From: Candidatus Thalassarchaeum betae
GTDB taxonomy: Archaea > Thermoplasmatota > Poseidoniia > Poseidoniales > Thalassarchaeaceae
Length of the DNA: 64,000 nt
Reading direction: 5' to 3'
NCBI GenBank assembly: GCA_022447095.1
Contig: JAKUUP010000005.1
Location: forward strand, 2,065-66,064
Shown one piece after another: positions 9,112 through 53,361 of the stretch (position 1 is the stretch's first letter; each line of letters opens with the position of its first letter). The position numbers were made by a program, and so were the translations under genes. The notes beneath the pieces are model-generated. The model did not search any database. It was not told where the DNA came from and worked only from the letters and a program-made list of their open reading frames with translations.

Positions 9112-9112
9112 A

Positions 9113-9694
9113 ATGGGTCTGCTGGAGAGATTGAGGCAAGATGGGAGTAATGAGGAGGAAGACGAGAGAATCGCTCATGATGTGCTGGAAAAAATCGAGG
9201 AAGGTGCTAAGGAAATCGAGGAACGTGCTAGGAGACACATCTCACCGACCAGAGTAATCTTCGCTTCAATCGCAGCCATTCTTCTGCTCGCTACGAGCCT
9301 GTTCGTTTTGACGTGGTTAGTCCCGTACGACAGGGTCAGCGTCGATGTGGTGTATCGTCAGGGTGGTCCCGGACACGTCGTGCTGGTAGAACTGGACAAC
9401 AAGGGCAGCAGGACGATCGAGGACATCAATCTGCACATCAGGTTCATTGATTCGAATGGTATCGAAGTCGATCGATCAATTTTCAATAAGGAGTCCTTGC
9501 CGGCGCATACCTCAGTCGCAGGGGACGACCTCGAGCTGCTCGTCAACGGGACTTCGGTATGGGAGAATTACACAATCGAGATACTGCTGAACTACGAGTA
9601 CTATGGAGGCGATCGCTCCGAGCGTTGGACCCACGATGTAGGAGAGTGGACGATGGAGATGTTCGTCGACAAGTCGCCGTACCGCTTCCTCTGA
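9113..9694 (+). CDS. Small bitopic membrane protein, translationally coupled to the giant gene
   Basis: Starts 2 nt after the upstream stop codon. Acidic N-terminus, one TM (VIFASIAAILLLATSLFVLTWLV), and a beta-rich C-terminal domain. Confidence 0.5.
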   Translation: MGLLERLRQDGSNEEEDERIAHDVLEKIEEGAKEIEERARRHISPTRVIFASIAAILLLATSLFVLTWLVPYDRVSVDVVYRQGGPGHVVLVELDNKGSRTIEDINLHIRFIDSNGIEVDRSIFNKESLPAHTSVAGDDLELLVNGTSVWENYTIEILLNYEYYGGDRSERWTHDVGEWTMEMFVDKSPYRFL

Positions 9695-9744
9695 GCAGTA
9701 TCAAGCATGACTATTGATGGGTTCAAAGAACCCATACGCTCAAA

Positions 9745-14271: not shown

Positions 14272-14277
14272 TTGAAC

Positions 14278-14297
14278 CGCGACCCTAAGGGGTCGCG
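14278..14297 (+). terminator. Perfect hairpin (8-bp stem cgcgaccc/gggtcgcg, loop taag) 7 nt after the subtilase stop
   Basis: Inverted repeat seen directly in the 67-nt intergenic spacer. Confidence 0.35.
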
Positions 14298-14338
14298 ATG
14301 CCCGAAGTCCTTAGAGGGGCGATTGAGTCGGAGCGACG

Positions 14339-17120: not shown

Positions 17121-17576
17121 ATGCTGATGACTTCTGTTCCCGAGGCCTATGTCGCAGTCGCTGTGATGACTCTAGTTGGAATTGGTTTTCCGGTAGTCAG
17201 TTTCATCGCATCGGCCTTCCTAAGGCCTAGAAAAGTCTCCAACGAGCCGTTCAAGATGCGCTCTTGGCTACTACCCGGTTACGAGACCGACCAGAGCCTG
17301 TACCTCCGTAGGGACAGCACCTACGAGTGTGGCGCCGAGCCTGTCGGGGACGCGCACATCAACTTCCACTTCCAGTACTATTGGTACGCCCTTATTTTCC
17401 TAGTATTCGACATCGCGTTCATGTTCCTTGCCTTCGGCGGGGTCATAGCAATGCAAGAGGGAGTGCTAGAAAGACCGGAGGTAATCGGAGCTTTGGCCAC
17501 CCTGACCGCGTTCATAGTGCTCATGAGTCTAGGCGTATGGCACGTCTTCCGAAAGCGGGGCAGGATATACATCTGA
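17121..17576 (+). CDS. nuoA: NADH-quinone oxidoreductase subunit A (ND3 family)
   Basis: YECGAEPVG...INFHFQYYWYALIFLVFDIAFMFL matches the NuoA signature. The longest ORF starts at 17088, but 17121/17127 is more likely. Confidence 0.85.
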   Translation: MLMTSVPEAYVAVAVMTLVGIGFPVVSFIASAFLRPRKVSNEPFKMRSWLLPGYETDQSLYLRRDSTYECGAEPVGDAHINFHFQYYWYALIFLVFDIAFMFLAFGGVIAMQEGVLERPEVIGALATLTAFIVLMSLGVWHVFRKRGRIYI

Positions 17577-17585
17577 GGTGAGGGA

Positions 17586-18182
17586 ATGGCGGACGAAGGT
17601 CAGAACTACTCCATGTTCAACAGCAGGATGCTGGTCGATGTCGTTGGAGATGTCACTGATGAGGCCCTCAAAGCGAGTCGAATCAAGGACATCATCGGGG
17701 TACTCGCAGGGAGGGTCTTCAATTGGGGTCAGCGCAAATCCCTGTTCCCACTCCATCTCGGTATCAAGTGCTGCGCCCTAGAGATGGCCGCCGCCGGAGC
17801 CAGCCGCTTCGACGCCGAGCGCTTCGGCGTCTTCTTCCGATCCAGCCCCCGACAGTGCGATGTCCTGCTTGTAAACGGACCGATTAGCAAGAAGTTCGCC
17901 GATCCGATAGTCCGACTCTGGGAGCAGATGCCCGAGCCCAAGTGGTGCATAGCCATGGGCGAGTGCTCGATTTCCGGCGGACCCTACTTCCAATCCTACA
18001 ACATCCTCGAGGGTGTTGACACTATCATCCCTGTCGATGTATACATCCCAGGTTGCCCACCACGACCAGAGGCTCTGATAGACGGCTTTGACAAACTTCG
18101 ACAGAAGATCATCCGCATCGGCGCTGTTCCGAGTGACGCAAGACCAGAGACAGAAGCACCACTCATCATCGGAGATGAGTGA
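17586..18182 (+). CDS. nuoB: NADH-quinone oxidoreductase subunit B (20 kDa, N2 cluster)
   Basis: CCALEM..., GECSISGGPY, PGCPPRPE. Confidence 0.92.
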   Translation: MADEGQNYSMFNSRMLVDVVGDVTDEALKASRIKDIIGVLAGRVFNWGQRKSLFPLHLGIKCCALEMAAAGASRFDAERFGVFFRSSPRQCDVLLVNGPISKKFADPIVRLWEQMPEPKWCIAMGECSISGGPYFQSYNILEGVDTIIPVDVYIPGCPPRPEALIDGFDKLRQKIIRIGAVPSDARPETEAPLIIGDE

Positions 18183-18197
18183 AAGGGGGGGGTTTCG

Positions 18198-18857
18198 ATG
18201 GGTAAGATAGTACCAATCAAGACGCAGAGGGCCGAGGCTGACAAACTCGCTGCCGCCATTTCGGAGATCGATGGAGTCGAAGCCGAGGTGGCCGAGCGAG
18301 CAAGTGGCACCAACCCCCGCCCGGTCGTGCTCGGAAACAGCTCTCCAGAGAGTTGGAGGGCACTAGCTGAGAAACTCCGCTCCGAGCATGGCGTCGACTA
18401 CTGCTCGATGGTAACCGGCATCCACTGGCCAGAGGGTGATGATGACAAGAAGTGGGAAATCGTCTACCACTTGATGAGAACCGGTATCAGAAACCCACCT
18501 ATTGAGGATGGCCTAGTTCAGCCAGTCATTGTCGACCCCTCTACGGTCAGGGGCTCCGGCACTCCACTGGAGTTGGAATTACATGTCCACCTGCCGGATA
18601 CGAGAACCCCTTCGGTGGACTCGGTTCAGGACATCTGGGTCGGTGCCGATTGGAATGAGAAGGAGACCTGGGATCTCGTTGGGATAGATTTCGATGGGCA
18701 TCAGGGAATGAGGAGGGTGCTGCAGCCCCACGAGACCCCCAAGGGCTTCCACCCTCTGCAGAAGCAGCATCGCCTCCGCTACCACGATTTCCAAGATATG
18801 TACGACGATTCCCAGGGATTCATGCGTAAGCCTGCTGACGCTGGCAAGATCAAGTGA
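18198..18857 (+). CDS. nuoC: NADH-quinone oxidoreductase subunit C (30 kDa)
   Basis: WEKETWDLVGIDFDGHQGMRRVLQPHE (the E.E..D..GI.F.GH...RRIL motif). Confidence 0.85.
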   Translation: MGKIVPIKTQRAEADKLAAAISEIDGVEAEVAERASGTNPRPVVLGNSSPESWRALAEKLRSEHGVDYCSMVTGIHWPEGDDDKKWEIVYHLMRTGIRNPPIEDGLVQPVIVDPSTVRGSGTPLELELHVHLPDTRTPSVDSVQDIWVGADWNEKETWDLVGIDFDGHQGMRRVLQPHETPKGFHPLQKQHRLRYHDFQDMYDDSQGFMRKPADAGKIK

Positions 18858-18866
18858 GGTGAGAAG

Positions 18867-20003
18867 ATGGCAGAGATGTGGATTTCGATGGGCCCCCAGC
18901 ACCCGATGACCCATGGTCTGTGGACTCTCAAAGTCAAAGTCGACGGCGAGACCGTCGTCGACACTGAGCCTGATTTGGGCTACATCCATCGTGGAGTCGA
19001 GAAGATCTGCGAGGCTCGGGATTTCACCCAGATCACGACTTACTGCGACCGCCTCTGCTACGCCAGTGCCAACACCTGGTCCCACTCCTACATCTACGCG
19101 GCTGAGGACCTACTCGAGGTCGAGGTCCCTGAGCGAGCCGAGTACATCCGCTTGGTGGCAATCGAGATCCAGCGCATTGCTAGCCACCTGATGTGGTTGG
19201 GCGCATATGGTCCCGACATCGGCAACTTGTCCGTGATGGTTTGGTGCCTGCGCGAGCGCGAGATGATGATGGATCTTCTCCAAGAACTAGGCGGCTCACG
19301 CATGCACTACAACTTCCCCCGTGTCGGTGGCGTCAAACGCGACCTACCACATGGCTTCGCTCAGCGAGCCCGCGCCAAGCTCAAGTTGTTCCTCAACAGG
19401 ATCCAAGAGTACGAGGCGCTGTTCGACGAGAGCACGGTGTTCCTAGTGCGCAGTCAGGGTGTGGGCTACGCAAAGCCGGAGGAGATGGTGAACCACGGCG
19501 TCACCGGACCCAATCTGCGCGCTGGCGGCGTAAACTACGACATCCGCTGGGCTCACCCTTACTCGGTGTACAGCGAACTTGATTGGGAGCCCCCGGTGGA
19601 ACGCTCCTCGATCAAGGGCGCTGACTGCTACGACCGCTACAGAGTCAGAGTCGAGGAGATGCGTGTGAGCGCGTCGTTGGCGTTACAGGCTCTGGACAAA
19701 ATGCCCGGAGGCGCCGACACCCACCACGAGCCAGGGGACCCGATGATACTCGCTAAGGCGCCCGCCCGGGCCCCTGAGGGAACCACTGGCGCACACCACT
19801 TCGAGGACAGCAGAGGCGAGTCGATGTTCTACATCGCCGGCGGCGGCGAGAGTCGAGGCAAGCAGCCTTACAGGGTCTCGATACGCTCTCCGATTTTCAT
19901 CACAATCCCGTTCGCGGCCAAGTGCATGATCGGTTACAAGGTCGCCGATATACCGGCCATCATGGGCTCCTTTGACCCATGTATAGGGGAGACAGACAGG
20001 TGA
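18867..20003 (+). CDS. nuoD: NADH-quinone oxidoreductase subunit D (49 kDa)
   Basis: MGPQHPMTHG, GYIHRGVEKICE, TYCDRL.YASAN. Confidence 0.92.
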   Translation: MAEMWISMGPQHPMTHGLWTLKVKVDGETVVDTEPDLGYIHRGVEKICEARDFTQITTYCDRLCYASANTWSHSYIYAAEDLLEVEVPERAEYIRLVAIEIQRIASHLMWLGAYGPDIGNLSVMVWCLREREMMMDLLQELGGSRMHYNFPRVGGVKRDLPHGFAQRARAKLKLFLNRIQEYEALFDESTVFLVRSQGVGYAKPEEMVNHGVTGPNLRAGGVNYDIRWAHPYSVYSELDWEPPVERSSIKGADCYDRYRVRVEEMRVSASLALQALDKMPGGADTHHEPGDPMILAKAPARAPEGTTGAHHFEDSRGESMFYIAGGGESRGKQPYRVSIRSPIFITIPFAAKCMIGYKVADIPAIMGSFDPCIGETDR

Positions 20004-20008
20004 TTCAC

Positions 20009-21586
20009 ATGGCTAGCGGCGACTGGTTGAACATCGTTGGTTGGTCCGAGTCTTTGACCAGTTGGTCGATGGACAACGTGCACGACGTCCTGCCTTCCAA
20101 CGACATCGACATGCAGGTCACCATACCGAGCACTTGGGCATGGCCGGAACCGATAACCATGGGTCCAATCTTCAATCTGCAACAGGGCTTCGCTAGCATT
20201 CAACCAGCTCTTGAGTCGTTCATGCATGCCACCATCATGTGCACGGTCGTCTTCACTGTCATGATGCTCACTATGCTGGCCATCCCATACATCGAGAGGA
20301 AGTTCATCGGACGGCTGATGGACAGACTCGGTGCCACCACCACCATGAGGAGCCTGTGGGTCGGCGAGAGCGGAGTGACAGCGGGGGAGTGGTGGAAGCA
20401 GTTGCCCTTCGGCATGGGTATCCCTATTGGATGGGTCGTCAACCTGCTGAACTCGTATTGGGGTAACAGTCACGAACTTGAGACTGTATCCAGAGTCAAC
20501 AACCGTAGTTATCATGGCTACTGGTTCCTTCTTCCCGGATTCTTTCAGGCGTTCGCCGACTTCATGAAATTCGCTACCAAGGAGCACATCGTACCGAAGA
20601 ACGCCGACAAGGTGGTCTTTGAGATCGCCCCTGTCATTATCCTCGCGACCACTATCATGGTGTTCGCCTTCGTACCGTTCGGCCCGCATATCTATGCTGC
20701 CAATCCAGAGCTCTCCCTCCTTTTCATGATGGCAATCTTCGGAGTCGCTCCGCTCGGGGTTTTCTTCGCCGGATGGGCCTCTAACACCAAGTACACTTTG
20801 ATCGGCGGGATGCGCTCGGCAGCCCAACTCACAGCATACGAGATACCGCTACTCATCACGGTTCTCGGCGTCGCGGTGCTCAGTGGCTCGTTCAACATCA
20901 TCGAGATAGTCGACTTCCAAATGGGCCAGAACGAAGGCAACGTCTGGAACATCTTCCTACTGCCGTTGGGCGCGGCTCTGTTCCTCATCACCATGATCGC
21001 CGAGGTCGAGCGCATACCGTTCGACATGCCCGAGGCCGAGGCCGAACTCGTTGAGGGCTGGTGGACCGAGTATGGGGGCATCCGGTGGGGCCTGATGTTC
21101 GCTGCCGAGTACATGCGCTCGTACGCCGCATGCATACTGTTCGCACTATTCTTCCTCGGCGGTTGGGAGGCGCCGTTCCAGCATACGCTCGCGGGCTTGC
21201 CAATCGTTGGAGGCACCTTCGAGACTGTCTTCACCGTCGTCCCAGGTCTCGTATGGGTCCTGATCAAGGCTTGGCTGTTGTTCGCTGTGTTCGTCTGGAT
21301 CCGCGCCTCTCTCCACAGGGTTCGCACGGATCAGATACTGGAGTTCGGCTGGCGCTATCTCCTGCCACTATCGATGGTCAACCTCGTTGTAGCGACCATA
21401 CTGCGATTGGAGGTCTGGACAGGAGAGCCATGGGACCTGTGGGTCCCGGTCGCCCTCACACTTGCCGCGCTAGTACTGTTCGTGATACTCGCTATCGATG
21501 AGGACGAGGAGGCGCTGGAAGTCCAACGCCGTCCCTACAGCACTCAGGCCGTGGTCAAGGCATCGCCAGGGAGTCACAGGGACTAG
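20009..21586 (+). CDS. nuoH: NADH-quinone oxidoreductase subunit H (ND1), with N- and C-terminal extensions and an internal insertion
   Basis: IERKFIGRLMDRLG, GFFQAFADFMKFATKE, AEVERIPFDMPEAEAELVEGWWTEYGG. About 525 aa versus ~330 typical. The ORF can extend to 19979, overlapping nuoD. Confidence 0.85.
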   Translation: MASGDWLNIVGWSESLTSWSMDNVHDVLPSNDIDMQVTIPSTWAWPEPITMGPIFNLQQGFASIQPALESFMHATIMCTVVFTVMMLTMLAIPYIERKFIGRLMDRLGATTTMRSLWVGESGVTAGEWWKQLPFGMGIPIGWVVNLLNSYWGNSHELETVSRVNNRSYHGYWFLLPGFFQAFADFMKFATKEHIVPKNADKVVFEIAPVIILATTIMVFAFVPFGPHIYAANPELSLLFMMAIFGVAPLGVFFAGWASNTKYTLIGGMRSAAQLTAYEIPLLITVLGVAVLSGSFNIIEIVDFQMGQNEGNVWNIFLLPLGAALFLITMIAEVERIPFDMPEAEAELVEGWWTEYGGIRWGLMFAAEYMRSYAACILFALFFLGGWEAPFQHTLAGLPIVGGTFETVFTVVPGLVWVLIKAWLLFAVFVWIRASLHRVRTDQILEFGWRYLLPLSMVNLVVATILRLEVWTGEPWDLWVPVALTLAALVLFVILAIDEDEEALEVQRRPYSTQAVVKASPGSHRD

Positions 21587-21594
21587 GAGGTGGG

Positions 21595-22566
21595 ATGATG
21601 AGTTACAAGGCGAATACCGGACATCCTCACGCGACTCCGAACTTCCGCAACCTCATTATCCGTCCGATGTGGATGACCCTCAAAACCGCACTAAGGACAG
21701 TCCCCTTCGTCGGCAAATTGAGATTCCTGAAGAACGACTATCACGGCAAACCCACAGTCATGGTGGACCAAGTCACGATGGACAGGGTCGGCTCAGAGCA
21801 CCCGAGCGTCGGCCAGAAATTCGCTCCTGACAGGGAGACCAGCCAAGTCATGCCTTTCGTCGAGCGACCGGTCACGGTGATGTACCCCTACGAGCGCCTT
21901 GAGGATCTCGAGCCATGGCTCTTCGTGCCCGGGAATTACTTCGGCCGTATCGGAATAGTATGGGAAACCTGCACAGCTTGCAAGTTGTGTATCCACGCTT
22001 GTCCAAATGACTGCCTCCACATGACCACCGAGGTCCGAGTGAACGTGCTTGAACTCTCCGAGGATGGCGACGAGTGGCACGGCTACGGGGGCGAACTCGA
22101 GGAGGGCGGCTACGCAGCTAGGGAGAAGGAGGAGTACCACGACATTGCCGCAAGTTTCGATTTGGTCAACGCGCACGCCGACGCACCTCAACAGTACGAC
22201 TTCGCCGAAGTCATCGAGATCTCTGGCGACAAGGCGACTGTGCGGTGGTCCGACGGCTCGGGAATCGAGACCGTTGACTCTACGTCCCTCAAACCGGCCG
22301 AGCAGGACATCGTGTCGGGTCAGATAGACCTCGGCAGGTGCATGTTCTGCGGGCTGTGCGCCGAGGCGTGCCCGTTCGAATCCTTCTTCATGACCAACGA
22401 GTATGACGGGATGTCTGGTTTCTCCCGAGAGGAGCTGTGGATGGACGCCAGCAGAACCCGCGTCTTGCCTGCAGTCCACCAAGAGAGAGTTGACATGGAA
22501 CTCGCTAAGCGCGCTGAGAAGGAGAAGCAGAAGCGCGCTCGCAAGGCTGCCCGAGCAGAGGCGTGA
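21595..22566 (+). CDS. nuoI: NADH-quinone oxidoreductase subunit I (2x[4Fe-4S] ferredoxin), with a ~100-aa insertion between the cluster motifs
   Basis: CTACKLCIHACPNDC and CMFCGLCAEACPFES are separated by ~115 aa, against the usual ~30. The C-terminus is Lys-rich (KRAEKEKQKRARKAARAEA). Confidence 0.85.
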   Translation: MMSYKANTGHPHATPNFRNLIIRPMWMTLKTALRTVPFVGKLRFLKNDYHGKPTVMVDQVTMDRVGSEHPSVGQKFAPDRETSQVMPFVERPVTVMYPYERLEDLEPWLFVPGNYFGRIGIVWETCTACKLCIHACPNDCLHMTTEVRVNVLELSEDGDEWHGYGGELEEGGYAAREKEEYHDIAASFDLVNAHADAPQQYDFAEVIEISGDKATVRWSDGSGIETVDSTSLKPAEQDIVSGQIDLGRCMFCGLCAEACPFESFFMTNEYDGMSGFSREELWMDASRTRVLPAVHQERVDMELAKRAEKEKQKRARKAARAEA

Positions 22567-22570
22567 GACA

Positions 22571-22834
22571 ATGCAAATCGACCTCGAGGCACTGGTGTTC
22601 GTAATTCTGGCAGCGACCGCCATTGGCGGCGCGCTGGGGTGTGTCTACGCCCGTAAGGTCGCCCACTCGCTGCTTTCACTCATGATGATGTTCTTCGCGG
22701 TTGCAGGAGTCTTCGTGATGGCCAGTGCGGAGATGCTGGCAGCGATTCAGATTCTCGTGTACCTCGGCTCCGTGATGCTCGTAGCCATGTTCGCAGTAAT
22801 GCTCACCCGCAGGCAGATACAGGAGGGCTTGTAG
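22571..22834 (+). CDS. nuoJ1: NADH-quinone oxidoreductase subunit J, N-terminal half (J1)
   Basis: MQIDLEALVFVILAATAIGGALGCVYARKVAHSLLSLMMMFFAVAGVF matches the NuoJ N-terminal helices. A stop codon is followed 1 nt later by the J2 start. Confidence 0.75.
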   Translation: MQIDLEALVFVILAATAIGGALGCVYARKVAHSLLSLMMMFFAVAGVFVMASAEMLAAIQILVYLGSVMLVAMFAVMLTRRQIQEGL

Positions 22835-22835
22835 G

Positions 22836-23102
22836 ATGAGGGCACTGTCCGCACTGGCCCGACTGGGTATATTTGCATTCATCCTGATTCTGCTCTCCGA
22901 GGTCATGTCCCACTCGATGTGGGGCTCGACTGAGGTGGCACCTTCCACACTCGACTTTGCGGTAGCTCTGTTCGGCGAGTGGTCGATGGCCACTGTGGTC
23001 CTCGGCGCGTTGCTGGCAATGGCCATGATCGGGGCCTCCTATCTAGTCCGTGACGAGCGCTTAGTCAATCTAATCTGGGATATGGAAGGTGATGACCAGT
23101 GA
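22836..23102 (+). CDS. nuoJ2: NADH-quinone oxidoreductase subunit J, C-terminal half (J2)
   Basis: Two-TM protein contiguous with J1 and ending 4 nt into nuoK. A split nuoJ is known in some archaeal operons. Confidence 0.65.
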   Translation: MRALSALARLGIFAFILILLSEVMSHSMWGSTEVAPSTLDFAVALFGEWSMATVVLGALLAMAMIGASYLVRDERLVNLIWDMEGDDQ

Positions 23103-23401
23103 TAGAGGCTAGTTGGATAGCTGGACTCGGCGTCATACTGTTCGGAATAGGTCTTCTCGGCGCTTTCAGCCGCAAGAACGCCATCGTGGTACTGATGTGC
23201 ATCGAGGTGATGCTCAACGCAGCCAACCTCAATTTCGTCGCCGGTGCTGTCCACTACGGCGACGTCAACGGCTGGGTGTTCACTGCCATCGCAATCGCAA
23301 TTTCAGCAGCCGAAGTAGCAATCGGGCTCGCTATCCTGTTGTCCTTGTACAGCACGCAGGAGACGATATACCTCGATGAGGCGAATATACTGAAAAATTG
23401 A
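23099..23401 (+). CDS. nuoK: NADH-quinone oxidoreductase subunit K (ND4L); GTG start overlapping the J2 stop
   Basis: LLGAFSRKNAIVVLMCIEVMLNAANLNFVAG. Confidence 0.9.
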   Translation: MIEASWIAGLGVILFGIGLLGAFSRKNAIVVLMCIEVMLNAANLNFVAGAVHYGDVNGWVFTAIAIAISAAEVAIGLAILLSLYSTQETIYLDEANILKN

Positions 23402-23410
23402 GGTGAGAGC

Positions 23411-25738
23411 ATGAGTGAGTCGAACAACGAGTGGCACCTCCTGCTACCGGTACTACCGTTCCTAGCAGTCACGCCATACCTATATTCGACTGGCTGGGAG
23501 TCTGTAGAGGCCGCTTACCTGATCGTCGTGGTCCCGCTGCTGACTTTCCCACTGATCTTGATTCTGGGTCAGATGTACAACGGCAACGAGACCTGGAAGC
23601 AGCGCTACAAGGAAGGAGGCATCTTCGCCCTTGGCGCCCTCGCACTGTCCCTCAGCATAGCCGTCTGGATAATCTACGACTATATTTCCGGATCAGCACA
23701 CTTCGAGGCCAACTCGGTGGTCGACCCGTTCTCGTGGCTAACCTTCGATGTCCTACAACATAGCGGCTCGCAGTGGGAACTCAGCACCGGCTTCGCCGAC
23801 ATCGGAGTCGGCGTTTGGATAGACTCGATCAGCCTGATGCTGCTTTTCGTCGCGACCTTCCTGTGCTTCCTGATCTGCTGGTTCAGCCTCGGCTACATGA
23901 ACACGGACTCGATCAACGAGGACCGGAACCACCGCTTCTACGGGGAGTTCGTGCTCTTCGGCATCGGCATGTTCGGAATGGTGCTCGCTGACAACTTCCT
24001 GTGGCTGTTCATCTTCTGGGAGATAATGGGACTCTGCTCCTATCTCCTCATCGGCTTCTACTTCTGGAAGGAGAGTGCCGCTGCGGCTGCCAAGAAAGCC
24101 TTCCTGACTACTCGCGTGGGTGATGTTTTCCTGATGGTCGGTTTGCTGATTCTGTACAACATCTACGGATCGCTGGAGTTCGCAGTGATATTCGACGACC
24201 CCTCGACTGGCGTCGGCGGGGCGCTCGTCGACTCAGGAGAGTTATTTTGGGCGTTGATGATGCTCTTCATCGGGGCAGTTGGCAAGTCGGCCCAGTTCCC
24301 GCTCCATGTCTGGCTGCCGGACGCGATGGAGGGCCCGACACCGGTTTCCGCGCTCATACACGCCGCGACGATGGTGAACGCCGGCCTCTACCTCGTCGCT
24401 AGGATGGTGCCTTTCGTTGACATCGGTCATGGCGGAGTCGCAGGACTCGAGGACATCGGACTCATCATCGCTTGGATAGGTGGCATCACAGCGTTCATGG
24501 CCGCCGCCATCGCCCTCGTCCAGAACGACATCAAGAAGGTCCTCGCCTACTCGACGATGAGCCAACTAGCCTACATCTTCACTGGGTTGGGTGCAGCCCT
24601 CTTCCTCCTCAATATCGGGGAGAACCATGCCGGGTACTTCGTCCTCGGTGCTTCGATGTTCCACCTGTTCAACCACGCCATGGCCAAGGGGATGCTGTTC
24701 ATGGCGAGCGGCTCGGTCATACACGAGGTGCATCACGCCCACGACCATGTACGTGAGTTGAGCCTCAAGTATAGCAGCCATGAGGGAGAGGACCCATCGG
24801 CCTTCGACCCGCAGGACATGCGGATCATGGGCGGATTGGCAGCCAAGATGCCGGTTACTGCCACAGCGATGATGTTCGGATCGATGTCCATCATCGGCAT
24901 ACCTCTCATTGGCGGCTTCTGGTCCAAAGAAGGCATCATCGCTGAGACCTGGGCCACCTGCCTGCACGAAGAGCCGATGATGTTCGTACCCGCCCTCCTT
25001 GTTCTCGCGACTGCGGGTATGACGGGCTTCTACATGACGAGGATGTGGCTGATGACCTTCGCCGGGCCACCCAAGAGCGAGGTGGTCGGGCACGTTCACG
25101 AAGCCACCCCTTGGATTAAGGAGCCGCTGATCATACTCACACTAATCACAGCCATTGGCGGATTCGGTTTCGCATTACTGGGAGCAATTAACTTCCTCGG
25201 TGGCGAGTCGGACCACTTGGCTATTCACGGCGACGACCTCATTTCAGCGATACTGAATGAACTCGAACACGCCTTCCTGCCCGATGATCCCAATCTGAGA
25301 CTGGTTGGCTGGACTACGATCCTCATCGCTATGGTTCTGGGGCCTGTGATGGCCTCACGCATCCACGGCGGACGGCTCATCGACGGGGTCGAGTCCAGTC
25401 CCTTCGTTGCTTGGCTGGTCAACCTCTCCAGCCGCTTCGGCTCGCAGAATGTCGACGAGTTGGCTAACTCGCAACTCGCTGAGGCTCTGCGGAGGAGGTT
25501 GTACTTCGATGACCTCTACGAAATGGTACTGGCAAAGACCGCTATTCCCCTCGCATCCTTCTCGGCTTGGTTCGACCAGAATGTCATCGACGGAGTCATC
25601 AAACAAATCGAGTCAAAATCAGCTTCCGGTTCGGTGCAAATCCGCAGAGTGACCACGGGTAACGCGCGCGACTACATCCTGATGGCAGCGGTCGGAATGC
25701 TCTCTATCTTCGCACTGATATGGGGGGTGAGCGCTTGA
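23411..25738 (+). CDS. nuoL: NADH-quinone oxidoreductase subunit L (ND5), elongated to 775 aa
   Basis: FWEIMGLCSYLLIGFYF, WLPDAMEGPTPVSALIHAATMV, plus a long C-terminal amphipathic region. Confidence 0.9.
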   Translation: MSESNNEWHLLLPVLPFLAVTPYLYSTGWESVEAAYLIVVVPLLTFPLILILGQMYNGNETWKQRYKEGGIFALGALALSLSIAVWIIYDYISGSAHFEANSVVDPFSWLTFDVLQHSGSQWELSTGFADIGVGVWIDSISLMLLFVATFLCFLICWFSLGYMNTDSINEDRNHRFYGEFVLFGIGMFGMVLADNFLWLFIFWEIMGLCSYLLIGFYFWKESAAAAAKKAFLTTRVGDVFLMVGLLILYNIYGSLEFAVIFDDPSTGVGGALVDSGELFWALMMLFIGAVGKSAQFPLHVWLPDAMEGPTPVSALIHAATMVNAGLYLVARMVPFVDIGHGGVAGLEDIGLIIAWIGGITAFMAAAIALVQNDIKKVLAYSTMSQLAYIFTGLGAALFLLNIGENHAGYFVLGASMFHLFNHAMAKGMLFMASGSVIHEVHHAHDHVRELSLKYSSHEGEDPSAFDPQDMRIMGGLAAKMPVTATAMMFGSMSIIGIPLIGGFWSKEGIIAETWATCLHEEPMMFVPALLVLATAGMTGFYMTRMWLMTFAGPPKSEVVGHVHEATPWIKEPLIILTLITAIGGFGFALLGAINFLGGESDHLAIHGDDLISAILNELEHAFLPDDPNLRLVGWTTILIAMVLGPVMASRIHGGRLIDGVESSPFVAWLVNLSSRFGSQNVDELANSQLAEALRRRLYFDDLYEMVLAKTAIPLASFSAWFDQNVIDGVIKQIESKSASGSVQIRRVTTGNARDYILMAAVGMLSIFALIWGVSA

Positions 25739-27336
25739 TTGATGACCCCCTGTCAGTGATCACCCTCGTCCCTCTGGCGGCAGGCTTGATTCTGCTGGTA
25801 CTGCCTCAGATACTACCAGGCGACTCGGCTGACGGCCTCAGGCGTGTATCGCGCAACATCAGTATGGGCGTGGCCCTAGCTATCGCCACGATCACGACCA
25901 TGCTGTTCGTGGGAGAGATAGGCAACATAGACTGGACCAACATCACTCAGGGAGGATACGTCCTAGAGAACGAGGCCGTCTCCCTAATCCCCTCCATAGG
26001 AGTGTCTTGGAAAGTAGGTGCTGACGCACTCTCGTTTCCGATGATTTGGCTCACAGCGATCCTCATACCAGTCTCGATGCTGGTCGAGTGGGACGCCAAG
26101 AGGGGGCACCTCTTCCACCCACTTCTCCTGATTATGGAAAGCGCACTCATCGGCGTCTTCGTCGCTCTCGACCTGTTCGTCTTCTACGTCTTCTGGGAGC
26201 TTACTCTGATTCCGATGTTCCTACTTATCCTTGTTTGGGGTGGGGAGGATCGCCGCTACGCGGCGATGAAGTTTTTCATCTACACATTCACAGCAAGTGT
26301 CTTCATGCTCGTCGGCATCCTCGTGATGTACTTCCATACCGACCCGATATCCGGCCTCGGCGACTTGTCCGGACACCACTTCGACTTGGTTGCCATGACG
26401 GCTCAGGAAAATCTGATTCCCAGCGAGGGCCTCAGGCACTTCGTCTGGTTCCTCCTGCTCATCGGCTTCGCCACCAAGATGCCCAGCGTACCGGTCCACA
26501 CTTGGTTGCCGGACGCACACGTGCAGGCTCCCACGGCCGGCTCGATGCTGCTTGCTGGAGTGATGCTGAAGATGGGCGCCTACGGATTCCTGCGAATCTC
26601 GGTCACAATCTTCCCTGAGTCAACAGTGGTGTTCATCCCCCTACTGATAGTTCTGGGGATGGTGAGTTTGGTCTACGGAGCATGGGTCTGCATGGGCCAG
26701 ACCAATCTCAAGCGCATGGTCGCCTACTCCTCAGTCTCGCATATGGGACTGATCTTCCTCGGTATCGCCACTATGCAGCCTCTGGGTATCGCTGGGGCGC
26801 TGTTCATGATGTTGGCCCACGGTATCATCAGCCCGCTTCTGTTCGCCGTGGCTGGGGCGTTCAAGCACCACTATCATACTCTAGAGATTGGCTCTATGAG
26901 GGGCATGGCGCATCACAGCCCGTGGCTTGCTGGCCACATGATGTTCGGCTGGATGGCCAGCCTCGGCCTACCGCTGCTCGCCGGATTTGTCGCAGAGGTT
27001 ACAATCCTGATCGCATTTTGGATGTCTTACGGTTGGCTAGTGCTGCTACCAGCGCTCACACTCATAGTCACGGCCGCGTATTACCTGAATTCGATGCAGC
27101 GCACCATCTTCGAGTCGAACGACCCGCATCAGGGAGACCTACCTGACTCCTTGCACGGTGAGCAGCCGAGCGACATAACCTGGCACGAGAATATCGGGAT
27201 GTTCGTGCTGGCTGGCATGACCGTACTCTTCGGCATTATGCCATTCATCTTCTGGGACATGATGTCAGACTGGAGTTCCAGCTTCGTACTCGATACGATG
27301 GTGGAAGCGATGCACTCACAGGGGTGGAGACCATGA
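25720..27336 (+). CDS. nuoM: NADH-quinone oxidoreductase subunit M (ND4)
   Basis: WLPDAHVQAPTAGSMLLAGVMLKMGAYGFLRI. Start choice is uncertain; the longest ORF overlaps nuoL by 19 nt. Confidence 0.88.
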   Translation: MGGERLIDDPLSVITLVPLAAGLILLVLPQILPGDSADGLRRVSRNISMGVALAIATITTMLFVGEIGNIDWTNITQGGYVLENEAVSLIPSIGVSWKVGADALSFPMIWLTAILIPVSMLVEWDAKRGHLFHPLLLIMESALIGVFVALDLFVFYVFWELTLIPMFLLILVWGGEDRRYAAMKFFIYTFTASVFMLVGILVMYFHTDPISGLGDLSGHHFDLVAMTAQENLIPSEGLRHFVWFLLLIGFATKMPSVPVHTWLPDAHVQAPTAGSMLLAGVMLKMGAYGFLRISVTIFPESTVVFIPLLIVLGMVSLVYGAWVCMGQTNLKRMVAYSSVSHMGLIFLGIATMQPLGIAGALFMMLAHGIISPLLFAVAGAFKHHYHTLEIGSMRGMAHHSPWLAGHMMFGWMASLGLPLLAGFVAEVTILIAFWMSYGWLVLLPALTLIVTAAYYLNSMQRTIFESNDPHQGDLPDSLHGEQPSDITWHENIGMFVLAGMTVLFGIMPFIFWDMMSDWSSSFVLDTMVEAMHSQGWRP

Positions 27337-29030
27337 GTTCGATTTTTACCGACATAGACGCCGAGACGGTGGAACTTATCCTGCCTGAACTCATCATGCT
27401 GGCGGGCATGCTCGCGATGATTCTCATACCCAATCTCGGAGACGCCACGATGAGGATCCCCCTCACAAAGACGCGAATCCCCATCCTGTTCGGAGGGACG
27501 AGGTTCGCAACGACGAACAACCCGAAGATCCCCAATCAGATTGCATCGACGACCTTTGGGCTTGCATTGGTCTCAGCCTTCCTGTTAATACACAATGAGG
27601 GCGATGTCGGAAACGCCCTGCACGTTGACGAGTTCAGCAGGTTGTTCACGATTATTTTCACAGCGGCCTTGTTGCTTGCTTCGATTGCTACGACTCACAG
27701 GTTGCCGGCGAGGCCCAAGGTGACCGCGCCGATCGAGACAGACTCGTTGGCTAGGGCCGATGCGAAAATCAACGCACTGATAGACAATCGGAGGCAGGTC
27801 GACTTCCACATCCTTCTGGTCACGACCGGACTTGGGATGAGCCTGATGGCGATGGCCACCAACTTGTTCATGCTCTTCGTCTGCCTTGAGCTCGCCTCAC
27901 TCTCATCGTACATCTTGGTCGCCTTCCACAAGGAGATTGATGTCGGCGGCGAGGCCGGGACGAAGTACTTCATCGTCGGCTCGGTGGTCTCAGCGATCGG
28001 AATCTACGGTATGTCCCTTCTTTACCTCTGGAACGGCAACTTGGACATGGCCAACCTAGAGACCTCTTGGGATGCAATGGAGGCGATGGACCCATTCGCT
28101 GCTATCGGTGCCGGCCTGATGCTGGTCGCCTTCGCATTCAAGGTCGGCGCAGCCCCATTTCACCTCGCTGTTCCCGATGCCTACGCAGGTGCCTCTTCAC
28201 CTGTGGCTGGGGTCTTGGCAACGGCCTCCAAGGCGATGGGCTTCGTCGCACTGATGCGCCTCCTACTCATCGTAACCATGCCAGCGGCTGGAGAGGCGTT
28301 CTGGTTCGCAGTGCTTGCCTTAATCTCGGTGGTGACTATGACGTGGGGCAATCTGGCAGCGCTGACCAGCGACAACCCGAAGCGCATTCTGGCATACTCG
28401 AGCGTAGCCCACGCTGGCTACATGCTGGCCGCACTCACCGCCGTCGGCAGTGGGCTGGCTGACGCCGATGCAACGGCCCTACTGATGACCGCGGTGTTGT
28501 TCCACCTCGTCGTCCTCTTGCTGTTCAAGTTCGGCGCCTTCCTCGTCCTCTCGATGCTCGAGACTGAAGGACGCAGTCATCGACTCGAGGACCTCCACGG
28601 ACTGGCTCGAAGGGATCCGATTGTAGCCGCCTCCATGTTCATCTTCATGCTCTCGTTGGCGGGTGTCCCACCGCTTTCCGGGTTCCTGTCGAAACTCTTG
28701 ATGATCAACGGTATAGTCAACGTCTCCGCCGGCACTGGAGCACTGTCGTCTACATCGATAGTATCTTGGGCTCAGGGCGTCGAACCCATCTTCTGGCTGG
28801 CCGTCGCGATAGTCCTCAACAGCGCCCTGTCTCTGTTCTACTATCTCAGAATCGGACTGGTGATGTTCTTCGAGTCCCCAGAGAGCGAGAGGACGCTCAA
28901 GCGCGCAGGATCCCTCAGGATGGCCATAGTGGGATGCGCGCTGCTCACCCTGCTCTTCGGGGTCGGTCCGATGAGCGAGTCACTTCTCGACTTGGTTAGC
29001 GCAGCAGTCGACTCTTTCGCGGGCAACTGA
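27324..29030 (+). CDS. nuoN: NADH-quinone oxidoreductase subunit N (ND2), elongated to 568 aa
   Basis: ASLSSYILVAFHKE..., AAPFHLAVPDAYAGASSPVAGVLATASKAMGF. There is a ~40-aa insertion after TM1. Confidence 0.85.
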   Translation: METMSSIFTDIDAETVELILPELIMLAGMLAMILIPNLGDATMRIPLTKTRIPILFGGTRFATTNNPKIPNQIASTTFGLALVSAFLLIHNEGDVGNALHVDEFSRLFTIIFTAALLLASIATTHRLPARPKVTAPIETDSLARADAKINALIDNRRQVDFHILLVTTGLGMSLMAMATNLFMLFVCLELASLSSYILVAFHKEIDVGGEAGTKYFIVGSVVSAIGIYGMSLLYLWNGNLDMANLETSWDAMEAMDPFAAIGAGLMLVAFAFKVGAAPFHLAVPDAYAGASSPVAGVLATASKAMGFVALMRLLLIVTMPAAGEAFWFAVLALISVVTMTWGNLAALTSDNPKRILAYSSVAHAGYMLAALTAVGSGLADADATALLMTAVLFHLVVLLLFKFGAFLVLSMLETEGRSHRLEDLHGLARRDPIVAASMFIFMLSLAGVPPLSGFLSKLLMINGIVNVSAGTGALSSTSIVSWAQGVEPIFWLAVAIVLNSALSLFYYLRIGLVMFFESPESERTLKRAGSLRMAIVGCALLTLLFGVGPMSESLLDLVSAAVDSFAGN

Positions 29031-32561: not shown

Positions 32562-32629
32562 AATCGACATCTATGATGTCGAGCCCATTCAATTGAAGGC
32601 TCGCGTGCTGTCTGAGGGGTCCGAGAGAC

Positions 32630-34189
32630 ATGGACAGGCTGCCTACTCGTATCGACCGTGGAAGCGACGACTTCCAGTCCCGGCGAGAGAAGAACGTGAC
32701 TCTGGCAGAGGAACTCAGAGACAGGCTAGACTCTGTCAAGGACGGCGGAGGGGGCAAGTAGGTCGAGCGTCACCGAGAGCGAGGCAAGAGCCTGCCAAGG
32801 GAAAGGATCTCCGAGATATGCGATGTCGGGACTCCGTTCCTTGAACTCTCGACCCTAGCGGCAAACGAACTGTATGACGGGAGAGCCCACTCTGCAGGTA
32901 TCGTAACCGGAATTGGGGTGGTGCACGGCAAGGAGTGTATGTTCGTGGCCAACGATGCGACAGTAAAGGGAGGCTCGTACTACCCGATGACAGTCAAGAA
33001 GCACATCAGGGCGCAGGAGGTCGCCGAGGAGAACAACCTCCCCTGCATATATCTGGTCGACTCGGGGGGAGCCTTCCTACCGATGCAGGACGAGGTCTTC
33101 CCCGACAAGTTGCACTTTGGCCGTATCTTCCGCAACCAAGCCATCCTCTCCAGCAAGGGGATTCCGCAAGTGGCCGCCGTGCTCGGATCGTGCACCGCTG
33201 GAGGCGCCTACATCCCGGCGATGTCCGATGAATCGATTATTGTCAAGGGCAACGGCACCATCTTCCTTGCCGGCCCGCCGCTGGTCAAGTCGGCCACCGG
33301 TGAGGAGGTCACCGCCGAGGAGCTCGGCGGGGCCGACTTGCACACCAAGGAGTCGGGCGTCGCTGACCACTTTGCTAACGATGAGCCTGAGGCATTGCGC
33401 ATGGTGCGCAGTGTAGTTGAGAACCTAAATGTCGACCCCAAGCACAGGCTCGATGTCTCGCAACCCGAGGAACCTGCACACGACCCTCAGGACCTGATGG
33501 GCATCATCCCAGGCGACAATCGTACACCTTACGATGTCAGGGAGGTCATATCCAGAATCGTCGACGGTTCGCACTTCCACGAGTTCAAGCAACGCTACGC
33601 CAATACTCTGGTCTGTGGCTTCGCTAGAATCCATGGTTATCCCGTTGGAATCGTCGCTAACAACGGAATTCTGTTCTCCGAGTCCGCGCTCAAGGGAGCA
33701 CACTTCATCGAGCTCTGCGGCCAACGAGGCATCCCACTTGTGTTCTTGCAGAACATCACCGGGTTCATGGTCGGCCGTGATGCCGAGGCCGGAGGCATCG
33801 CCAAGGACGGGGCTAAACTCGTCACGGCCGTATCATGTGTCCCAGTTCCGAAGTTCACAGTCATCATCGGCGGCTCACACGGTGCAGGTAACTACGGCAT
33901 GTGCGGCCGGGCCTACGACCCGCGATTCCTGTTCATGTGGCCGAACGCCAGAATCTCGGTGATGGGCGGCGAGCAGGCTGCCAGCGTTCTGTCGTCGGTA
34001 GGAAACGTCGATCCCGACGAGATTCGCGTGCGGTACGAGAGTGAGAGCAACCCATACTACTCCAGCGCACGGCTCTGGGACGACGGTGTAATCGACCCCC
34101 GAGACACCCGTGATGTGCTCGGACTGTGCATATCAGCCAGCCTCAACGCGCAGATGCCGGACCAGGACTACGGCGTTTTCAGGATGTGA
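32630..34189 (+). CDS. Acyl-CoA carboxylase carboxyltransferase (beta) subunit (propionyl-/methylcrotonyl-CoA carboxylase beta family) with one in-frame TAG at 32759-32761
   Basis: Downstream of the TAG: [45 protein letters not shown], and the second CT domain. Upstream, in the same frame: [15 protein letters not shown]...[45 protein letters not shown]. The total is 519 codons, i.e. the normal beta-subunit length. Confidence 0.7.
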
Positions 34190-34190
34190 T

Positions 34191-35063
34191 ATGGTGAGGA
34201 TGAGCGATGTCAGGCCGTCAGCGGAATTCTGCTCGTTGAGCATCGACGCCTCGGTCGCCACTCTAACTCTAGAGCGAAGCGACGTCTACAACGCACTCAA
34301 CGTGCAATTAATCAGCGAACTCGTCGACACACTCGACTGGACCGCGCAGCGCTCCGTCGGCACAACCGGCTCGCTGCGCGATCAGGACGACTCCGAGTAC
34401 CTGCGGGTGCTGGTGCTCCGTGGCGCAGGACGGCACTTCTGCGCAGGAGCCGACATCAACATGATGCGCGATGCAGGGGTAAAGACCCCGGAGGAGAACC
34501 GCGCCGACTCCGAGCGACTCGACCGCTTATTCAACACCCTGTGGACACATCCTTGTTTCACCATCTCCACCGTTCAGGGGGTGGCGCTGGGTGGCGGTGC
34601 CGGCCTCCTCGCCTGCTCTGACCACGTAATCGCTCTGGAAAGCGCGAGAATCGCCCTGTCCGAGGCCAAGTTGGGAATCCTGCCTGCGGTAATCGGGCCA
34701 TACGTCCTCCGCCGTGTAGGCAGTGCTCAGTTCCGACGGCTCGCCATGCTCGCAGGGCGCTTCGACGGACACGAGGCGTTGAATATCGGAATGATCGATC
34801 AGGTCTCCACCTCATCGGAGGAGTCTGCTGAGATGGTCGACGCCGCGATTGCTACGGTGATGAGCACCGGTCCCGTGGCGGTTACTGAGGCCAAGAAACT
34901 CGTTCAGACCCTCGAACGCTGGCATGGCACCGATGAGGATCTGCGTCGGTGGACGATGGACAAGACCAGCGAGATGAGGGGCTCACCCGAGGGTCAAGAG
35001 GGGCTGTCAGCGTTCCTCGACCGCCGGCCGCCGGCCTGGTCACCGGAGGATCAGGACGGTTGA
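34191..35063 (+). CDS. Enoyl-CoA hydratase/isomerase (crotonase fold)
   Basis: LTLERSDVYNALN...ELV and VLRGAGRHFCAGADI (oxyanion-hole motif). Starts 2 nt after the beta-subunit stop. Confidence 0.8.
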   Translation: MVRMSDVRPSAEFCSLSIDASVATLTLERSDVYNALNVQLISELVDTLDWTAQRSVGTTGSLRDQDDSEYLRVLVLRGAGRHFCAGADINMMRDAGVKTPEENRADSERLDRLFNTLWTHPCFTISTVQGVALGGGAGLLACSDHVIALESARIALSEAKLGILPAVIGPYVLRRVGSAQFRRLAMLAGRFDGHEALNIGMIDQVSTSSEESAEMVDAAIATVMSTGPVAVTEAKKLVQTLERWHGTDEDLRRWTMDKTSEMRGSPEGQEGLSAFLDRRPPAWSPEDQDG

Positions 35064-35065
35064 AC

Positions 35066-36619
35066 ATGACATCAGGACCCTTGGACAACGCTCCTCGACC
35101 CTTCGGCACGGTGCTGGTCGCGAACCGCGGCGAGATCGCCGTACGGGTGCTGCAAGCTGCCAGAGAGGCAGGGCTCCGTGGGATAGCCGTCTACTCGGAC
35201 GCTGATGCCAACTCCCTGCACATCGAGGTGGCTGACGATGCAGTCCACCTTCCTGGCTCCACCCTCGCTGAGACCTACCTCAACTCAGAGGCCCTGATAT
35301 CAGCGGCCGGCGATTGTGGGGCCGAAGCGATACACCCGGGATACGGTTTCCTCTCCGAGCGAGCTGACTTCGCCATAGCCGTCGAGGACGCTGGACTGGT
35401 TTGGATCGGCCCACCTTCAGGCGCTATCTCAACGATGGGAGACAAAATCTCAGCGCGCATTCGGATGCTTGAGTCAGGAGTGCCCGTGATACCCGGCGAG
35501 GAACTCTCGGTTCCTGACGGAGCGGATCACCTCGGCGCGCTAGCATCCTGCGCAGCCAGAGTCGGCTACCCCCTACTGCTCAAGGCCAGTGCGGGAGGAG
35601 GCGGCAAGGGGATGCGCGCGGTGCACGAGCCCAAGATGCTCAGGACTGAGTACGAGGCGGCATCGCGAGAGGCTTCAGCCGCCTTTGGTGACGGTACGAT
35701 ATACGTCGAGCGACTACTCTCTGGCGCACGGCACGTGGAGGTGCAGATTCTCGCCGACTCCCACGGAAATTGCATCCACCTCAACGAGAGGGACTGCTCT
35801 TTGCAGCGCAGGCACCAGAAGGTGATTGAGGAGTCTCCTTCCCCGGCTGTGGATCATCAGTTGCGCCAGGCCATGGGGGACGCAGCGGTGACGGCAGCCA
35901 AGGCAGTGGATTACATTGGTGCCGGAACTGTGGAATTCATGTTGTCTCCAAAAGGAGATTTCTATTTCCTTGAGATGAACACCCGATTGCAGGTCGAGCA
36001 CCCTGTGACAGAGATGACCACGGGCATAGATATCGTTCAGAAACAGTTTGAGGTGGCTGCGGGCTTGCAATTGGGAATAGCGCAAAGTGATGTCGGTATG
36101 AGCGGCCACGCCATCGAAGCGCGAATCTACGCAGAAGACGCATCGAAGGGATTTCTTCCTGTGGTTGGCAGACTGGCATTGTGGAAGCCGCCGCATGGCC
36201 CGGGAATCAGAGTCGACTCGGGAGTCAGGCAGGGCGATGTCGTAACCACCGATTTCGACCCGATGCTAGCCAAACTAGTCGTCCACGCCCCAACTCGCCA
36301 GGCTGCTCTGCGCAGGCTCGACGCCGCCTTAGCTGACCTAGTGGCGCTGGGAGTGACCACCAATATCGGATTCCTCCGTAATGCGGCCGCGCATCACGCA
36401 TTCGCGAGCGGGAGTATCACCACTGAGTTTCTGGACTCCGCTCCCATCTCCGAATTCGCCGAGCCGGGAGCAGATCCGGCCGTCCTCGTCGCCATAGCTT
36501 CTGCAGCCCAGCGACTTGGGATGGAGCGAGCCCCTTTGGATGTCGCGTCTGGCTCCGTAGACGAGCACACAGGACATTCAGGTGACCCGTTCAGGACCCT
36601 GTCGAGGTCATTCCCCTGA
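35066..36619 (+). CDS. accC: Biotin carboxylase subunit of acyl-CoA carboxylase (ATP-grasp)
   Basis: VLVANRGEIAVRVL.A..E.G, HPGYGFLSE, LLLKASAGGGGKGMR, EMNTRLQVEHPVTE. No C-terminal biotinyl domain. Confidence 0.9.
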   Translation: MTSGPLDNAPRPFGTVLVANRGEIAVRVLQAAREAGLRGIAVYSDADANSLHIEVADDAVHLPGSTLAETYLNSEALISAAGDCGAEAIHPGYGFLSERADFAIAVEDAGLVWIGPPSGAISTMGDKISARIRMLESGVPVIPGEELSVPDGADHLGALASCAARVGYPLLLKASAGGGGKGMRAVHEPKMLRTEYEAASREASAAFGDGTIYVERLLSGARHVEVQILADSHGNCIHLNERDCSLQRRHQKVIEESPSPAVDHQLRQAMGDAAVTAAKAVDYIGAGTVEFMLSPKGDFYFLEMNTRLQVEHPVTEMTTGIDIVQKQFEVAAGLQLGIAQSDVGMSGHAIEARIYAEDASKGFLPVVGRLALWKPPHGPGIRVDSGVRQGDVVTTDFDPMLAKLVVHAPTRQAALRRLDAALADLVALGVTTNIGFLRNAAAHHAFASGSITTEFLDSAPISEFAEPGADPAVLVAIASAAQRLGMERAPLDVASGSVDEHTGHSGDPFRTLSRSFP

Positions 36620-36628
36620 GGTTAGAAT

Positions 36629-37129
36629 ATGGATTGGAGCGTGGGAGAGGACAGCAGGCGGTACACCGCCGCCCTGAATGACTCAGACGGCGCTCTGATA
36701 CTCTCGTCGGTACAACAGGATGGAATGGAACTCGACTCTCCGGAAATCTCAATCACCCGTGATGACCATCACGGGCGACTCAGGGTGGAAATCGCCGGGA
36801 CTCCTCGACTCGCCCACGTGGCCAAGGTCGGTGATGCTTGGTGGATACACCTAGACGGGCGAATCCACATCGTGCGCGCGCACGAGCCCGGCAGCGCCGG
36901 GACCGAACCCTCCGAAGGAACCCTCTCTGCACCGATGCCCGGGACGGTGCTCAAGATCCACGTCAAGGAGGGGCAGAGAGTGCGCAAGGGACAGACACTA
37001 GTTGTGTTGGAGGCGATGAAGATGGAGCACCGAATACAGGCCCCGAAGGCGGGCGAGGTCACAAATCTCCACTTTTCCGAGGGCGACAGAGTCGATATGG
37101 GTGAGATTCTGGTACAAATCGGCGATTGA
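36629..37129 (+). CDS. accB: Biotin carboxyl carrier protein (biotinyl domain, EAMKME)
   Basis: PMPGTVLKIHVKEGQRVRKGQTLVVLEAMKMEHRIQAP contains the biotinylation motif AMKM. Confidence 0.85.
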   Translation: MDWSVGEDSRRYTAALNDSDGALILSSVQQDGMELDSPEISITRDDHHGRLRVEIAGTPRLAHVAKVGDAWWIHLDGRIHIVRAHEPGSAGTEPSEGTLSAPMPGTVLKIHVKEGQRVRKGQTLVVLEAMKMEHRIQAPKAGEVTNLHFSEGDRVDMGEILVQIGD

Positions 37130-52590: not shown

Positions 52591-53361
52591 TCATCCACGC
52601 AGACCTAGTTTGCGCGCCAGCATGGCCAGTGGATCGTAGTATTCGGTCACCACTCTCTCCTTGAGAGGGATGATCGCGTTGTCTGTGATGTTGATGCCTG
52701 CAGGACATACCTCGGTACAGCACTTGGTGATGTTGCAGTAGCCGATGCCGAAATCATCCTTGATCTCAGGAATTCGGCTCACGGTGTCCAGTGGGTGCAT
52801 TTCGAGATTGGCGAGTCGGACGAAGAAGCGCGGGCCGGCGAACTCGTCGAACTTCTGGTGCTCGCGCAGAACATGGCAGGTGTTTACGCAGAGCATGCAT
52901 TCTATGCAGGAGCGGAACTCCTGCAACCGCTCAGCCTCCTCTTGGTGAAACTCCCAGTCGGGTTCCTCGTGGCCGCTAATCGGCTCGATGAGCTTGACCA
53001 TCTCGTATGCCCAAGAATTGTCAGTCACCAAGTCCTTAGTCAGCGGGAAGGCCTGCATCGGCTTGATCAGGACAGGCTCGCCATCTGGGGTCTCCTCAAG
53101 GACGTCTTCCATCCTAGTCATGCACATCAACTTCGGCTTGCCATTGACCTCAGCGCTGCACGAGCCGCACTTGCCCGCCTTGCAGTTCCAGCGGCATGCA
53201 AGGTCCGGGGACTGCTCGGCTTGTATCCGGTGAATGACGTCTAGCACCACCATGCCCTCATCCATCTCGACGGTGTAATCGACCATCCGTCCGAATGGCT
53301 CGCCGTCGGCATCCGACTCCCCTCTGAACACCCTGAACGTGACCTCGTTACTCATACTCAT
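52591..53361 (-). CDS. sdhB: Succinate dehydrogenase/fumarate reductase iron-sulfur subunit
   Basis: CRWNCKAGKCGSCSAEVNG ([2Fe-2S]), CIECMLCVNTC and CNITKCCTEVCPAGI. Confidence 0.9.
   Translation of the reverse strand: MSMSNEVTFRVFRGESDADGEPFGRMVDYTVEMDEGMVVLDVIHRIQAEQSPDLACRWNCKAGKCGSCSAEVNGKPKLMCMTRMEDVLEETPDGEPVLIKPMQAFPLTKDLVTDNSWAYEMVKLIEPISGHEEPDWEFHQEEAERLQEFRSCIECMLCVNTCHVLREHQKFDEFAGPRFFVRLANLEMHPLDTVSRIPEIKDDFGIGYCNITKCCTEVCPAGINITDNAIIPLKERVVTEYYDPLAMLARKLGLRG

Follow-up and report, generated by a model that had tools for sequence, protein, structure and literature searches.

The methylcrotonyl-CoA carboxylase (MCC) beta gene in the 64,000-nucleotide stretch of DNA from ‘Ca. Thalassarchaeum betae’ analysed here (hereafter, the window) is interrupted by a single in-frame TAG, which is probably a base-calling or consensus artefact in one assembly, as suggested by population-level signatures of private variants and by published error motifs. 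The MCC beta gene of the organism itself is almost certainly normal. Sequencing or assembly error was one of the explanations offered in the initial annotation, next to a very recent nonsense mutation and stop-codon suppression or recoding, and it emerges as the best supported of them: the stop belongs to a private cluster of substitutions confined to T's, and it falls in the T>G/A>C class of changes, which resembles noise and depends on the project from which an assembly comes.

Translation from ATG 32630 to the terminator TGA at 34187-34189 gives 519 codons, in which TAG 32759-32761 (codon 44) is the sole in-frame stop; the earlier description of a single amber codon in an otherwise intact frame is thereby confirmed. 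The following features of the locus are referred to below.

32630-34189, + strand: MCC beta-type carboxyltransferase gene, 519 codons with a single interruption at codon 44 (from translation, Pfam, structure relatives and orthologues)
32759-32761, + strand: in-frame TAG, codon 44 (from translation and contig comparison)
32918-34189, + strand: 423-aa open reading frame beginning at GTG 32918 (codon 97), the first in-frame start past the TAG
34191-35063, + strand: enoyl-CoA hydratase (methylglutaconyl- or carboxygeranoyl-CoA hydratase-like), intact
35066-36619, + strand: biotin carboxylase, 517 aa, intact
36629-37129, + strand: biotin carboxyl carrier protein (BCCP), 166 aa, intact, the protein being identical to the BCCP of conspecific contigs

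With the stop masked, PF01039 (Carboxyl_trans) matches residues 48-509, corresponding to profile positions 2-483 of 493 (E 3e-150). The conceptual protein, at 519 aa close to the ~520-560 aa expected of an MCC beta subunit with a complete Carboxyl_trans domain, has the same length as its orthologues. Homologues number in the thousands; the best 120 are 510-527 aa long, mostly 519 aa, and the orthologues of 519 aa bear the name 3-methylcrotonyl-CoA carboxylase beta subunit. The nearest homologues are labelled Thalassarchaeaceae, "Euryarchaeota archaeon" or Thermoplasmatota. Among solved structures, the top relatives are MCC beta chains (4q0g, 2.5e-216; 3u9r, 2e-214; 8j4z, 2e-212), with weaker matches to geranyl-CoA carboxylase (GCC) beta (5ikl, 8e-132) and propionyl-CoA carboxylase (PCC) beta (~1e-80); by these E-values the protein belongs with MCC beta, the beta subunits of PCC and GCC and the carboxyltransferases of ACC being more distant. 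Judged by its homologues, the gene at 32630-34189 is an ordinary, widespread MCC beta gene of Marine Group II.

It shares the full-length Carboxyl_trans architecture of the MCC beta subunits of P. aeruginosa (3U9R), M. tuberculosis (AccD1, 4Q0G) and human (MCCC2, 8J4Z), from which the archaeal copy differs by the in-frame TAG at codon 44. The genes for carboxyltransferase, hydratase, biotin carboxylase and BCCP follow each other in an order that is kept in all conspecific contigs, and by gene content they are assigned to a liu-type leucine-catabolism cluster with the carboxyltransferase gene first. Whereas known MCC has one fused alpha chain, the archaeal locus encodes biotin carboxylase and BCCP as two genes (35066-37129). 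The N-terminal part of the BCCP weakly resembles the BT domain of MCC-alpha (PF21139), with an E-value of 2e-4 that falls short of the cut-off. Upstream of the cluster lie genes for eIF-1A, a RIO kinase, a KH protein and a DUF63 protein, which, taken with the labels of the nearest homologues, assign the window to a Marine Group II archaeon.

Taken at face value, the TAG would be costly to the protein. A 423-aa product re-initiated at GTG 32918 lacks residues 1-96, including ~49 residues of the carboxyltransferase domain. Alignments with solved MCC beta chains begin at query residue 4-22, so that the missing stretch belongs to the folded subunit. A search for the truncated 423-aa product found no gene on record with such a product. 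The 83-aa open reading frame at 32593-32844, whose presence was initially attributed to the stop, lies in another frame and does not depend on the TAG for its existence, being a spurious overlapping frame.

Comparison of orthologues, which had been proposed as a check, gave a clear answer as to the residue expected at codon 44: among the best 120 homologues, this column holds Tyr in 92 and His in 28. Conspecific contigs were retrieved by exact match to the BCCP protein of the window, which yielded ten contigs from independent metagenomes of several projects and samples. All have the same gene order as the window, and their identity to it over 8-20 kb is 99.45-99.82 %, except that contig L009 is near-identical across the carboxyltransferase gene only, its identity over the entire 8.8 kb being 95.7 %. 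In each of the ten, the 519-aa gene is uninterrupted and codon 44 is TAT (Tyr). In a contig with ~94.5 % identity codon 44 is TAC, and more distant lineages have TAC, TAT or CAT. Codons 39-44 read GGC GGT GGT GGC AAG TAT in the conspecific contigs vs GGC GGA GGG GGC AAG TAG in the window, so that the stop is one of three neighbouring differences.

32744-32755, + strand: G-rich run (GGC GGT GGT GGC in conspecific contigs), with GGC and GG-ending motifs just 5' of the altered T's
32749-32761, + strand: cluster of window-private substitutions, namely T>A at 32749 and T>G at 32752, both synonymous (GGT>GGA and GGT>GGG, respectively), and T>G at 32761 (TAT>TAG)

Over the 1560 nt of the gene, the window has only 4-7 mismatches to any of the ten contigs, of which the cluster supplies three; outside the cluster the gene has one other private change, which is synonymous. 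To set this against a wider background, further conspecific loci were added, so that 51 kb of the window could be compared with at least three comparators at ≥99.3 % identity. Over these 51 kb the window has 18 private substitutions and zero indels. The chance that three of 18 randomly placed private variants fall within 13 nt is p ~1e-4; clustering of this degree does not arise by chance, and the three changes therefore represent one event.

Among the assemblies and lineages examined, none but the window has this haplotype. Exact-pattern scans for the TAG allele found no match in GTDB representative genomes or in JGI metagenome contigs, and the wild-type 41-nt pattern gave no match in the GTDB representatives either. 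A scan of the JGI metagenome contigs for the GGA-GGG haplotype that left the third base of codon 44 free was equally negative, and GGA-GGG was found in none of the lineages examined, which range from 79 to 99.6 % identity. A private variant of the window in the biotin carboxylase gene was looked up as well and gave no match.

A locus in decay can be rejected, as it has no lesion besides the TAG. The initial annotation had named frameshifts and further stops nearby as the sign of such decay; in the 51-kb comparison no frameshifts were seen, and the 48 further gene models checked are all free of internal stops. The gene thus has one stop and no indels, its neighbours are intact, and the lesion does not recur in independent samples.

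The stop could instead be a real private nonsense allele, very recent and perhaps produced by one multi-nucleotide event that hit three T's, with loss of the beta subunit; it would then mark the onset of pseudogenisation, or else be a rare harmful variant caught by a low-coverage consensus. This account is the main rival to an artefact, and we consider it unlikely but not negligible. In its favour, the remaining variation of the window looks real: of the 18 private substitutions 12 are at third positions and 10 are synonymous, and several are common to more divergent relatives, which together suggest that the private variants of the window are genuine polymorphisms. All three changes in the cluster are also at third codon positions, and two of the three are synonymous, as in real variation, with the reservation that, of the four T's available in the 13-nt span, three occupy third positions in any case. 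Clustered real variation is known in this population, and stops do occur in other assemblies (see L022 and L007 below). On the other side, the allele is absent from all ten conspecific contigs and from both large collections, and neither the gene nor its operon displays a second lesion or relaxed selection.

Two further clusters of private changes are present in the window. At 28178/28190, two private synonymous C>T changes, 12 nt apart, lie in a Proton_antipo_M-family (complex I antiporter-like) gene, and at 36373-36418 four private changes within 46 nt, synonymous or V>I, lie in the biotin carboxylase gene. Both are probably short recombination tracts, and no donor for either was found among the loci fetched.

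Elsewhere, the window encodes three very large proteins in a row at 4723-17035, of 1462 aa (no Pfam match), 1500 aa (Peptidase_S8 and CARDB) and 898 aa. This region is more variable among the conspecific contigs, two of which (L012 and L019) have N-gaps and shorter gene calls there. A complete complex-I-like (nuo) operon follows downstream at 17121-29030. Minus-strand open reading frames at 58-60 kb were considered as broken genes and rejected, the 741-aa open reading frame on the plus strand being a genuine CDC48.

To weigh an artefact against a real allele, all private variants of 20 near-identical assemblies were pooled and sorted by class. The private transitions comprise 108 synonymous and 28 nonsynonymous changes (79 % synonymous), 79 % of them at third positions, which identifies them, by this measure, as real variation filtered by selection. 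The private T>G/A>C changes, by contrast, comprise 18 synonymous and 31 nonsynonymous changes and 2 stops (35 % synonymous), with 49 % at third positions; W>G, F>C, Q>P and V>G are among the radical replacements in this class. Transitions and T>G/A>C changes differ in synonymous share with a Fisher p = 4.5e-8. Because random T>G/A>C changes in these genes would be 17 % synonymous against the 35 % observed, ~70 % of the class appears unfiltered, and by the same calculation an estimated ~30 % would be real.

Two other properties of the class point to a technical origin. When changes are oriented as T>G, the altered T directly follows GG in 21 % of them vs 8 % in the background (p = 0.003). Moreover, T>G/A>C changes make up 53 % of the private variants in assemblies of project LUOE20-1 (L003, L008, L018, L024 and L026) vs 14 % elsewhere (p = 3e-7), whereas the biological mutation spectrum of one population should not vary by project. 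The excess in LUOE20-1 has the character of a project-specific error signature, one that yields false nonsynonymous and nonsense variants. Sequencing by two-colour chemistry would be in keeping with an excess of T>G/A>C. This noise-like behaviour of the T>G class, dependent on project and favouring GG, speaks against the nonsense allele.

The T>G/A>C class contains two stops, each a TAT>TAG. The window gene has the first; the second is in L018, where a private TAT>TAG at 1770 is followed 12 nt downstream by a private GGT>GGG at 1782 (window 9355 and 9367). It splits a 193-aa gene (window 9113-9694) unrelated to the carboxyltransferase, in an assembly in which 12 of 18 private variants are T>G/A>C. 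A like lesion in another gene is more easily explained by chemistry than by biology, which again weighs against a real nonsense allele.

The sister assemblies hold other irregularities. In L018, a 1-nt deletion near 13257 (window ~20842) splits a gene for an NADH dehydrogenase subunit (window 20000-21586). L007 has a private stop at window 27991, TCA>TAA (C>A), in the Proton_antipo_M-family gene at 27333-29030, and a private C>G at a distance of 25 nt; it is one more nonsense change confined to a single assembly. L022 carries 7-8 private changes within 25 nt at window 54588-54612, seven of them at successive third positions and six synonymous, in a succinate dehydrogenase/fumarate reductase flavoprotein gene on the minus strand (53358-55187); from this pattern, it looks like a short tract imported from a divergent lineage.

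Published error profiles fit the cluster in part. In Illumina metagenomic data substitutions cluster and affect T at the highest rate, G being the preferred replacement, and the 3-mers that precede errors tend to end in GG, above all CGG and GGG (Schirmer et al. 2016, PMC4787001). A GGC motif can be followed, within ~10 nt on its 3' side, by the start of a series of consecutive miscalls (Nakamura et al. 2011, PMC3141275). In the window cluster, all three altered bases are T and two of the three are changed to G. The preceding 3-mers are CGG at 32749, TGG at 32752 and GTA at 32761, and GGC motifs are present at 32744-46, 3 nt upstream of the first change, and at 32753-55, 6 nt upstream of the third. 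The cluster therefore has in common with Illumina sequence-specific errors the tight clustering, the T targets and the GG/GGC context, and the signature recurs in sister assemblies; it differs in that one change is T>A and in that the third T follows GTA, and the likeness is one of sequence signature.

On this evidence, the true codons 39-44 of the organism would most probably be GGC GGT GGT GGC AAG TAT, and a normal 519-aa MCC beta would be made. In and just past the G-rich run, three T's within 13 nt were probably miscalled (T>A, T>G and T>G), the third of these miscalls, at 32761, having turned a Tyr codon TAT into TAG. Some observations run counter to error. The window is otherwise clean, and three consensus errors at one spot in a clean assembly would therefore require coverage to have dropped there, or else a systematic problem affecting one strand. 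The first change, T>A, departs from the canonical T>G, and real clusters of third-position transversions do exist, as in L022.

Such clusters bring in another explanation, namely that a short tract from a divergent lineage introduced GGA-GGG, and that a later change or error made the TAG. The two other private clusters of the window, all synonymous or conservative, resemble short imports of this kind, and L022 has an obvious imported tract. We nevertheless regard an import at the carboxyltransferase gene as very improbable. The more divergent orthologues supplied no donor: in lineages with 94.6, 82, 81 and 79 % gene identity the two codons are GGT-GGT, GGC-GGA, GGT-GGC or GGT-GAG, and these lineages have further differences in flanking codons which the window keeps unchanged. 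The absence of GGA-GGG from the JGI contigs, whatever the third base of codon 44, argues in the same direction, and an import needs a separate event for the stop.

The remaining possibility offered initially, that the TAG is decoded by a suppressor tRNA, as pyrrolysine, or by programmed or near-cognate readthrough to give the full-length enzyme, is extremely unlikely. It draws on the frame, which is perfectly kept on both sides of the TAG, and on a tRNA-Tyr(GUA) gene present in the window. TAG is near-cognate for tRNA-Tyr(GUA), and rare leaky readthrough would restore the wild-type Tyr. TAG is, however, a frequent terminator here: of 52 gene models in the window 37 end in TGA, 11 (21 %) in TAG and 4 in TAA. 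Global decoding of TAG would be harmful, as the next in-frame stop past the TAG terminators is often tens of codons off. Only one gene of the window has an in-frame TAG, and the TAT found at this position in the conspecific contigs, with TAC, TAT or CAT farther out, indicates that it is not a conserved recoding site. The ~30 nt compared downstream of the TAG are the same in TAT-bearing contigs, and the fold of the 120 nt from the TAG onward is unremarkable (z = -2.0).

A search of the 64-kb window for other in-frame TAGs in genes and for a suppressor tRNA(CUA), both suggested initially as checks, found neither, the tRNA search being done with ARAGORN and Rfam. The sole tRNA in the window, detected with Rfam at 17-117 (+ strand; 101 nt, 56 bits), is tRNA-Tyr(GUA), with an anticodon loop C-U-G-U-A-G followed by a ~30-nt intron after position 37 and an encoded CCA end; ARAGORN reported no tRNA in the window and missed this intron-containing gene. 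Nor does the 64-kb window encode the combination of a tRNA(CUA) with pylS/pylBCD that pyrrolysine would require. Pyrrolysine and amber suppression, as in the methylamine methyltransferase genes of Methanosarcinales and Methanomassiliicoccales, shares with the window gene only a lone in-frame TAG in an intact conserved gene; it differs in that the window TAG is unconserved in orthologues, in the frequent use of TAG as terminator and in the lack of a tRNA(CUA) in the window. To our knowledge, the carboxyltransferase family does not use pyrrolysine. That the TAG is real in a strain of Marine Group II and tolerated through readthrough at a useful rate, for example by tRNA-Tyr(GUA) or an unrecognised suppressor, with full-length MCC as the outcome, is likewise scarcely credible.

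The TAG is not an indication of an altered genetic code, and whichever explanation holds, there is nothing new in kind. Its main lesson is a caution for metagenome-derived genomes of this population, in which isolated T>G/A>C changes beside G-runs are mostly artefacts. An artefactual TAT>TAG, which occurred twice among the 20 assemblies compared, mimics recoding or pseudogenisation. The finding has little biological importance, and the stop very probably does not belong to the organism; if the stop were real, it would amount to a strain-level loss of leucine catabolism, a minor finding.
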